Origin: Escherichia coli | GTDB taxonomy: Bacteria > Pseudomonadota > Gammaproteobacteria > Enterobacterales > Enterobacteriaceae | DNA: 64,000 nt | Assembly (NCBI RefSeq): GCF_003019035.1 | Contig: NZ_CP027447.1 | Direction: 5' to 3' (one strand) | Shown: positions 5,822 to 6,018 of the stretch, in pieces | Layout: each line of letters opens with the position of its first letter | Numbering within the stretch: position 1 is the first letter of the stretch | The notes under the pieces: model-generated | Databases searched by the model: none | The model's input: the letters and a program-made list of their open reading frames with translations, nothing else | Told to the model about the DNA's origin: nothing | Program-made: the position numbers and the translations under genes

Positions 5822-5844
5822 AAAAAACCCCGCCGGTGGCGGGG
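5822..5844 (-). terminator. intrinsic terminator ending the fliC transcript
   Basis: GC hairpin ccccgccggtggcgggg followed by a T-run on the minus strand. Confidence 0.6.
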
Positions 5845-5876
5845 AAGCACGTTGCTGACAAATTACCATTCATGTT

Positions 5877-5977
5877 GCCGGATGCGGCGTAAACGCCTTA
5901 TCCGGCCTACAAAAATGTGCAAATTCAATAAATTGCAATTCACCTTGTAGGCCTGATAAGCGCAGCGCATCAGGCAA
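5877..5977. repeat. REP/BIME element: two inverted REP units
   Basis: gccggatgcggcgtaaacgccttatccggcctac plus inverted copy gtaggcctgataagcgcagcgcatcaggc. Confidence 0.7.
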
Positions 5978-6018
5978 TTTGGCGTTGCCGTCAGTCTCAG
6001 TTAATCAGGTTACGACGA

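Follow-up and report, generated by a model that had tools for sequence, protein, structure and literature searches.

The region examined here lies in a flagellar locus of Escherichia coli, within a 64-kb stretch of DNA that was analysed as a whole (hereafter, the window). The flagellin gene fliC is located on the minus strand at positions 7299-6019, and its translation gives 426 amino acids followed by a TAA stop codon at 6021-6019. Its product was assigned to the FliC/FljB family of flagellins (NCBIfam NF005294; score 503.6 bits, cut-off 387). The fliD gene (7545-8960) is divergent from fliC, while fliA (5699-4980, minus strand) is found 3' of fliC across the intergenic region, and the order fliD, fliC, UTR, fliA and fliZ is the arrangement known from K-12. 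An alignment of positions 5700-6100 showed 100% identity to E. coli CFSAN061771 and 96% identity to K-12 MG1655. The σ28 consensus is TAAAGTTT-N11-GCCGATAA, and the fliC promoter, which was read from the sequence at 7402-7376 on the minus strand as TAAAGGTT, an 11-nt spacer and GACGATAA, is intact and agrees with it. Judged by this agreement, the σ28 promoter of fliC would drive the parent transcript of the small RNA FliX, and from the homology to the K-12 fliC(-70) fragment we infer that transcription starts near position 7368. The σ28 -10 consensus GCCGATAA was present in nine copies in the window (at 3343, 4662, 5725, 7495, 13091, 22051, 29859, 42454 and 57455) against 1.96 expected by chance, an excess that fits the neighbourhood of a flagellar regulon; one of these sites (5725-5732, minus strand) lies inside the fliA upstream region.

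The 3' UTR of fliC corresponds exactly to positions 5822-6018 of the minus strand (197 nt), because the stop codon is at 6021-6019 and the U-run of the terminator ends at 5822. The intrinsic terminator consists of a stem with seven G-C pairs (CCCCGCCACCGGCGGGG, 5844-5828, minus strand), which is followed by six U residues (5827-5822); the run has seven U in K-12, and six is the commoner length among the nine diverse long-form E. coli alleles that were compared. This Rho-independent terminator (5822-5844) is likely, by its sequence, to be the Hfq-binding 3' module of the RNA. The first-pass annotation had placed about 195 nt between the fliC stop and its terminator; counted up to the start of the terminator stem, the gap is 174 nt. 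Every open reading frame of at least 20 amino acids in the UTR crosses repeat or terminator sequence.

Two REP units were recognised in the UTR, in agreement with the earlier report of an inverted pair at this site. The unit nearest the terminator (TGCCGGATGCGGCGTAAACGCCTTATCCGGCCTAC, 5876-5910) is of the GCCGGATG y-like type, and the unit nearest the stop codon (GTAGGCCTGATAAGCGCAGCGCATCAGGCAA, 5947-5977, with its GTAG foot at 5947-5950) is of the GCCTGATG z-like type. They are inversely oriented, occur as single copies, each with a GTAG/CTAC foot, and are joined by an AT-rich linker of the L type (5911-5946, 36 nt). The REP foot motif CTTATCMGGCCTAC was found three times in the 64-kb window compared to the 0.03 occurrences expected by chance, and two of the three were in the fliC UTR; the sole other REP-foot-like match in the window was CTTATCCGGCCCAC at 43565-43578 on the plus strand, with one mismatch. 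The linker itself is a dispersed repeat. When it was searched for with a 50-nt query that comprised the 36-nt linker and short REP-foot flanks, 5,423 genomes had a place that covered at least 80% of the query, and the number of places matched per E. coli genome had a median of 7 and reached 19. A BIME-1 is composed of one y and one z1 REP; the second unit here is z-like, of the GCCTGATG type, and short (31 nt). In the published description of BIME-1 elements, also called RIP or RIB, a single REP is followed by an inverted one, and the L linker between them is long, well conserved and often provided with an IHF site (PMC3333891). The element in the fliC UTR resembles them in its single copy of each unit, its inverse GCCGGATG and GCCTGATG REPs, its GTAG/CTAC feet and its long dispersed linker, which bears out the earlier suggestion of a BIME at this place. 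It differs from them in being embedded in, and processed within, a regulatory RNA, and in its putative IHF site, which is off the consensus by one position: the exact consensus WATCAANNNNTTR was absent from the linker, and a comparison by eye of the linker sequence ATTCAATAAATTG with WATCAANNNNTTR revealed one mismatch. Going by their sequence, the two REPs and their conserved linker resemble a mobile repeat of the BIME-1 kind, which would form the structured body of the RNA.

An orthologue of this RNA is already known. FliX was first listed from RIL-seq data by Bar et al. in 2021, and Melamed et al. (2023, eLife 12:RP87151; PMC10578931) characterised it, together with its shorter form FliX-S, in E. 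coli K-12. The K-12 coordinates of FliX are 2,001,912-2,002,106, which gives 195 nt (PMC8175672). Judged by its alignment to K-12, the region 5822-6018 carries fliX, the orthologue of the K-12 gene. We placed the ends of the RNA and the mutated M1 triplet by locating the oligonucleotides published in PMC10578931 on the alignment of the window with K-12. The full-length FliX would occupy positions 5822-6015 of the minus strand (194 nt), with its +1 at 6015, the fourth nucleotide past the stop codon, as given by primer SM044 (TTGTAACCTGATTAACTGAGACTG), and its 3' end in the terminator U-run. The processed 3' form, FliX-S, would be 105 nt long (5822-5926, minus strand), starting at 5926, midway through the BIME linker, as given by primer SM673 (GAATTTGCACATTTTTGTAGGCCGG) and the FliX-S T7 template; it keeps the REP nearest the terminator, while the REP nearest the stop codon belongs to FliX and not to FliX-S. 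The window and K-12 share the locus, the strand, the neighbouring genes, the two REPs, the linker and the start sequence of FliX-S. The lengths differ (194 nt here compared to 195 nt in K-12), with six substitutions and one indel, i.e., one U less in the tail, distinguishing the two RNAs over 195 aligned columns. One of the substitutions is at FliX nt 2, one is in the linker and four are clustered just 5' of the seed, while the seed, the M1 triplet and the terminator stem are identical to those of K-12. The parent genes are less alike: fliC of the window encodes 426 amino acids compared to the 498-aa H48 flagellin of K-12 (1,497-nt CDS), and the identity of the two genes is about 87-90% in their conserved ends. 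A FliX-type RNA from this UTR had been called plausible in the first-pass annotation, which was an understatement, since the locus is the orthologue of a named and characterised RNA, and the checks that were proposed there (northern blotting, Hfq co-immunoprecipitation and RIL-seq) had already been performed in K-12 by others. The observation was correct but not new; it rediscovers a published sRNA, which is intact in this strain. The finding is of use for annotation, as the fliX region bears no annotation in the RefSeq records that were examined and an Rfam 15 scan of positions 4500-8000 at E <= 1 returned no match to a FliX family, only hits to repeat families.

The work on K-12 provides the framework for reading this locus. 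There, FliX is an Hfq-bound RNA of about 200 nt that is cut from the σ28-dependent fliC mRNA; its 5' end is processed and not primary, with no separate transcription, and FliX-S, of about 100 nt, keeps one REP from downstream of fliC (PMC10578931). The evidence comprises northern bands of about 200 and 100 nt, Hfq co-immunoprecipitation and RIL-seq (PMC10578931). The pairing sites of FliX were found to lie within the coding regions of fliC and of three S10-operon genes, rplC, rpsS and rpsQ, and FliX lowered the fliC mRNA, flagellin and the number of flagella and slowed flagella synthesis (PMC10578931). Reporter fusions were repressed by the K-12 FliX and a footprint was obtained on rpsS; with a mutated seed, the RNA no longer bound or regulated its targets, and a compensatory mutation in rpsS restored the binding (PMC10578931). 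In a chromosomal M1 seed mutant, the fliC mRNA, FlgJ and the number of flagella increased, although the phenotypes were mild, and stronger phenotypes were reported for FliX-S (PMC10578931). The authors proposed an sRNA-directed decay and stated that the mechanism still needs testing (PMC10578931). From this close, but non-identical, orthologue we infer that FliX of the window would be expressed, processed and bound by Hfq in the same manner. By homology to K-12, the σ28-dependent fliC mRNA would end at the intrinsic terminator, a ribonucleolytic cut just past the stop codon would release FliX of about 195 nt, and a cut inside the AU-rich BIME linker would release FliX-S of about 105 nt. Hfq would bind both forms at the terminator and U-tail module, and the single-stranded seed just 5' of the terminator would pair inside the coding sequences of fliC, rplC, rpsS and rpsQ, the last three of which belong to an operon located beyond the window. 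Such pairing would lower the expression of the targets, which would make FliX a late brake on flagella synthesis.

In its general layout, FliX resembles the Hfq sRNAs FlgO, CpxQ, SdhX, MalH and NarS, which are also derived from 3' UTRs by cutting of the parent mRNA and in which the sRNA likewise shares the terminator of the mRNA and has a processed 5' end and a seed just before the terminator. Unlike them, it has a BIME in its body and pairs in coding sequences, not at ribosome-binding sites. A REP hairpin inside a stable small RNA is also known from SroC, C0362 and C0664 (PMC12306157), which, in contrast to FliX, come from other loci and have other targets; the name FliX does not occur in the text of that report (PMC12306157).

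The seed of FliX (UUUGUCAGCAACGUGCUU, 5862-5845, minus strand), which is identical to that of K-12, was nearly invariant across the nine diverse long-form alleles, with the KE51 allele having a U-to-C change in the seed without a compensating change. The M1 triplet GCA (5855-5853, minus strand), which is changed to CGU in oligonucleotide SM644 and in the FliX-S-M1 template, sits within TTTGTCAGCAACGTGC. The four clustered substitutions define an allelic patch at 5865-5871 of the minus strand, which is CAUGAAUGGUAA here and CAUAAAGCGCAA in K-12. Among the nine alleles, the patch occurred as the haplotypes GAAUGGU, which is that of the window, and AAAGCGC, and in one intermediate form; folding predicts that either haplotype still pairs, though in a different register, with the 5' ACGCCA in the full-length RNA and with the linker in FliX-S. 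The mean identity of the nine alleles was 97%, too little variation for an analysis of covariation. The structured nature of the UTR, which had also been pointed out before, was confirmed by folding: the full-length FliX (194 nt) had a predicted energy of -70.3 kcal/mol (z = -3.84), with one of 200 shuffled sequences folding as well, and the 105-nt 3' part had -46.6 kcal/mol (z = -5.04), with none of 200. The terminator-proximal REP was predicted to fold as a hairpin in FliX-S.

The two forms of the RNA differ in the predicted accessibility of the seed. Based on the minimum free energy structure and the pairing probabilities, which were computed for both the window and the K-12 alleles and led to the same prediction, the seed segment UUGUCAG has a predicted partner in CUGACGG (FliX nt 22-28; 5994-5988, minus strand) in the full-length FliX only. 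The probability of being unpaired was 0.00-0.05 for G157-G161 in FliX compared to a range of 0.04-0.99 in FliX-S, where most values were at least about 0.6. The G and C of the M1 triplet were predicted to be largely paired in FliX-S as well, in a small local hairpin. We therefore hypothesise that CUGACGG may mask half of the seed in the full-length FliX, in which case cleavage in the linker would strip this mask from the 5' half of the seed and activate the RNA. Removal of the masking segment by the linker cut would account for the greater activity of FliX-S; the uncompensated seed change of KE51 counts against such masking. In a duplex scan, no strong complement of the seed was present in the first 260 nt of fliC, where the best site had about -13 kcal/mol; the best conserved site in fliC was at about +400, with a predicted -15.3 kcal/mol in the window and -18.3 kcal/mol in K-12.

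FliX is not present in all E. coli strains. The long form of the fliC 3' UTR, defined as at least 80% of positions 5700-6100 of the window, was found in 3,501 of the 5,426 complete E. coli genomes (64.5%). A further 1,875 genomes (34.6%) have one of three short forms, which were counted using junction-only queries and in which 18-21 nt separate the fliC stop from the same terminator; in total, 5,376 of the 5,426 genomes have either the long or a short form. Short form A, with TAATTTACACTTATCGCTCAAA after the stop, occurred in 863 genomes; short form B, with TAATCGCCTGAATGCCTCTCAAA, in 227; and short form C, with TAATGGCCTTAACCTGCCTGA and a 349-aa flagellin, in 785. Alignments of the short-UTR loci (L002:2482-2525, L004:2583-2625 and L013:133-175) with positions 5822-6018 revealed that REPs, BIME and FliX seed are all lacking from the short forms. 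Their terminator and fliA upstream region are the same as in the long form. The long form is not merely a short form with an inserted BIME, because about 70 nt that flank the BIME, the seed included, are also missing from the short forms. In one of the short-UTR strains, AR76.3 (L015:296-445), fliA is annotated as a frameshifted pseudogene, and this strain is therefore probably non-motile. In a check of the literature that was not exhaustive, we found no statement on the absence of fliX within E. coli.

Other explanations of the locus were considered. The BIME could serve mainly to stabilise the fliC mRNA, with its REP hairpins blocking 3'-to-5' exonucleases and the species of about 200 and 100 nt being inert intermediates of decay. 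Stabilisation of mRNA is among the documented roles of REPs (PMC3333891), the hairpins of the REPs and the BIME have a high stability, and FliX is a processing product and not a primary transcript, all of which suit this explanation. Against it stand the seed mutations in K-12, the compensatory rpsS mutation and the phenotype of the chromosomal seed mutant. Moreover, about a third of the E. coli genomes have a fliC without a BIME, and the element is therefore dispensable for flagellin expression. We consider it very unlikely that stabilisation is the main role; a stabilising role would, in any case, be compatible with that of an sRNA. Still less probable is that the element acts at the level of DNA, i.e., that the BIME-1 is a binding site of IHF or gyrase and insulates fliC from fliA, topologically or transcriptionally, the RNA being incidental. 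In favour of this, the linker belongs to a dispersed family of BIME linkers and the fliA promoter region begins shortly after the element, but the linker lacks the exact IHF consensus, and in the short-form genomes the terminator and the fliA upstream region are identical although there is no BIME. This role, too, would be compatible with FliX. Both the exonuclease barrier and the role at the level of DNA fit the anatomy of the locus but leave the seed-specific genetics of K-12 unexplained, and neither is needed for the function of fliC, since many strains do without the BIME.

The Rfam scan raised another candidate. The ES036 (CssrF) family matched the linker at 5913-5954 on the plus strand with 37.6 bits, which is exactly its gathering score, and the first hairpin of naRNA4 (CssrE) matched the terminator-proximal REP on the minus strand with 41.9 bits, short of its gathering score (59.5). 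As the linker occurs about seven times per genome, the ES036 family appears to model a dispersed repeat and not one sRNA gene. The idea that the REP and linker give rise, in part from the plus strand, to a separate RNA like ES036/CssrF or naRNA4 has these two scores in its favour and can be dismissed as the least probable of all, because the linker is a dispersed repeat and both hits fall on repeat units, with the ES036 match being antisense to FliX and the naRNA4 match covering one hairpin only; moreover, a search of 5822-6018 yielded no promoter of the σ70 type on the plus strand, which here runs antisense to an mRNA of very high expression.

The reading that best accounts for the locus as a whole, to which we assign a probability of about 0.93, is that positions 6015-5822 of the minus strand are fliX, which by homology would be processed and act as a brake as in K-12, that its body is BIME-1-like and that the formation of FliX-S may unmask the seed. 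Only the strain-level presence or absence of fliX and the predicted masking of the seed reach beyond the literature consulted.

Outside of E. coli, FliX has been stated to be restricted to the Enterobacteriaceae (PMC13085923) and, elsewhere, to be conserved in some Enterobacteriaceae. We searched 100,044 species-representative genomes for an exact match to a 23-mer that spans the seed and terminator, and one contig matched. As the scan needs an exact match and missed even the E. coli representative itself, it gives nothing firm on other Enterobacteriaceae. The matching contig, JAIJJM010000281.1 (L016:1-420), is a 3.9-kb contig from the metagenome-assembled genome of a 'Collinsella sp.' and contains the 3' end of fliC, fliX and the fliA upstream sequence. 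It is a close match to E. coli with the same patch haplotype as the window, and is almost certainly an E. coli-like binning contaminant.

It is possible, though we rate the chance as clearly below even, that FliX is a strain-variable accessory regulator and not a fixed part of the flagellar circuit, and that, in addition, cleavage in the BIME linker activates it by unmasking the seed. The short-form genomes are natural FliX-minus strains in which the effect of the brake on motility, flagellin dosage and the coupling to ribosomal proteins could be studied. If this proposal is true, about a third of E. coli strains would lack the σ28 'decelerator' arm and the link to the ribosomal-protein mRNAs, and both would be passed on along with the fliC (H-antigen) allele.
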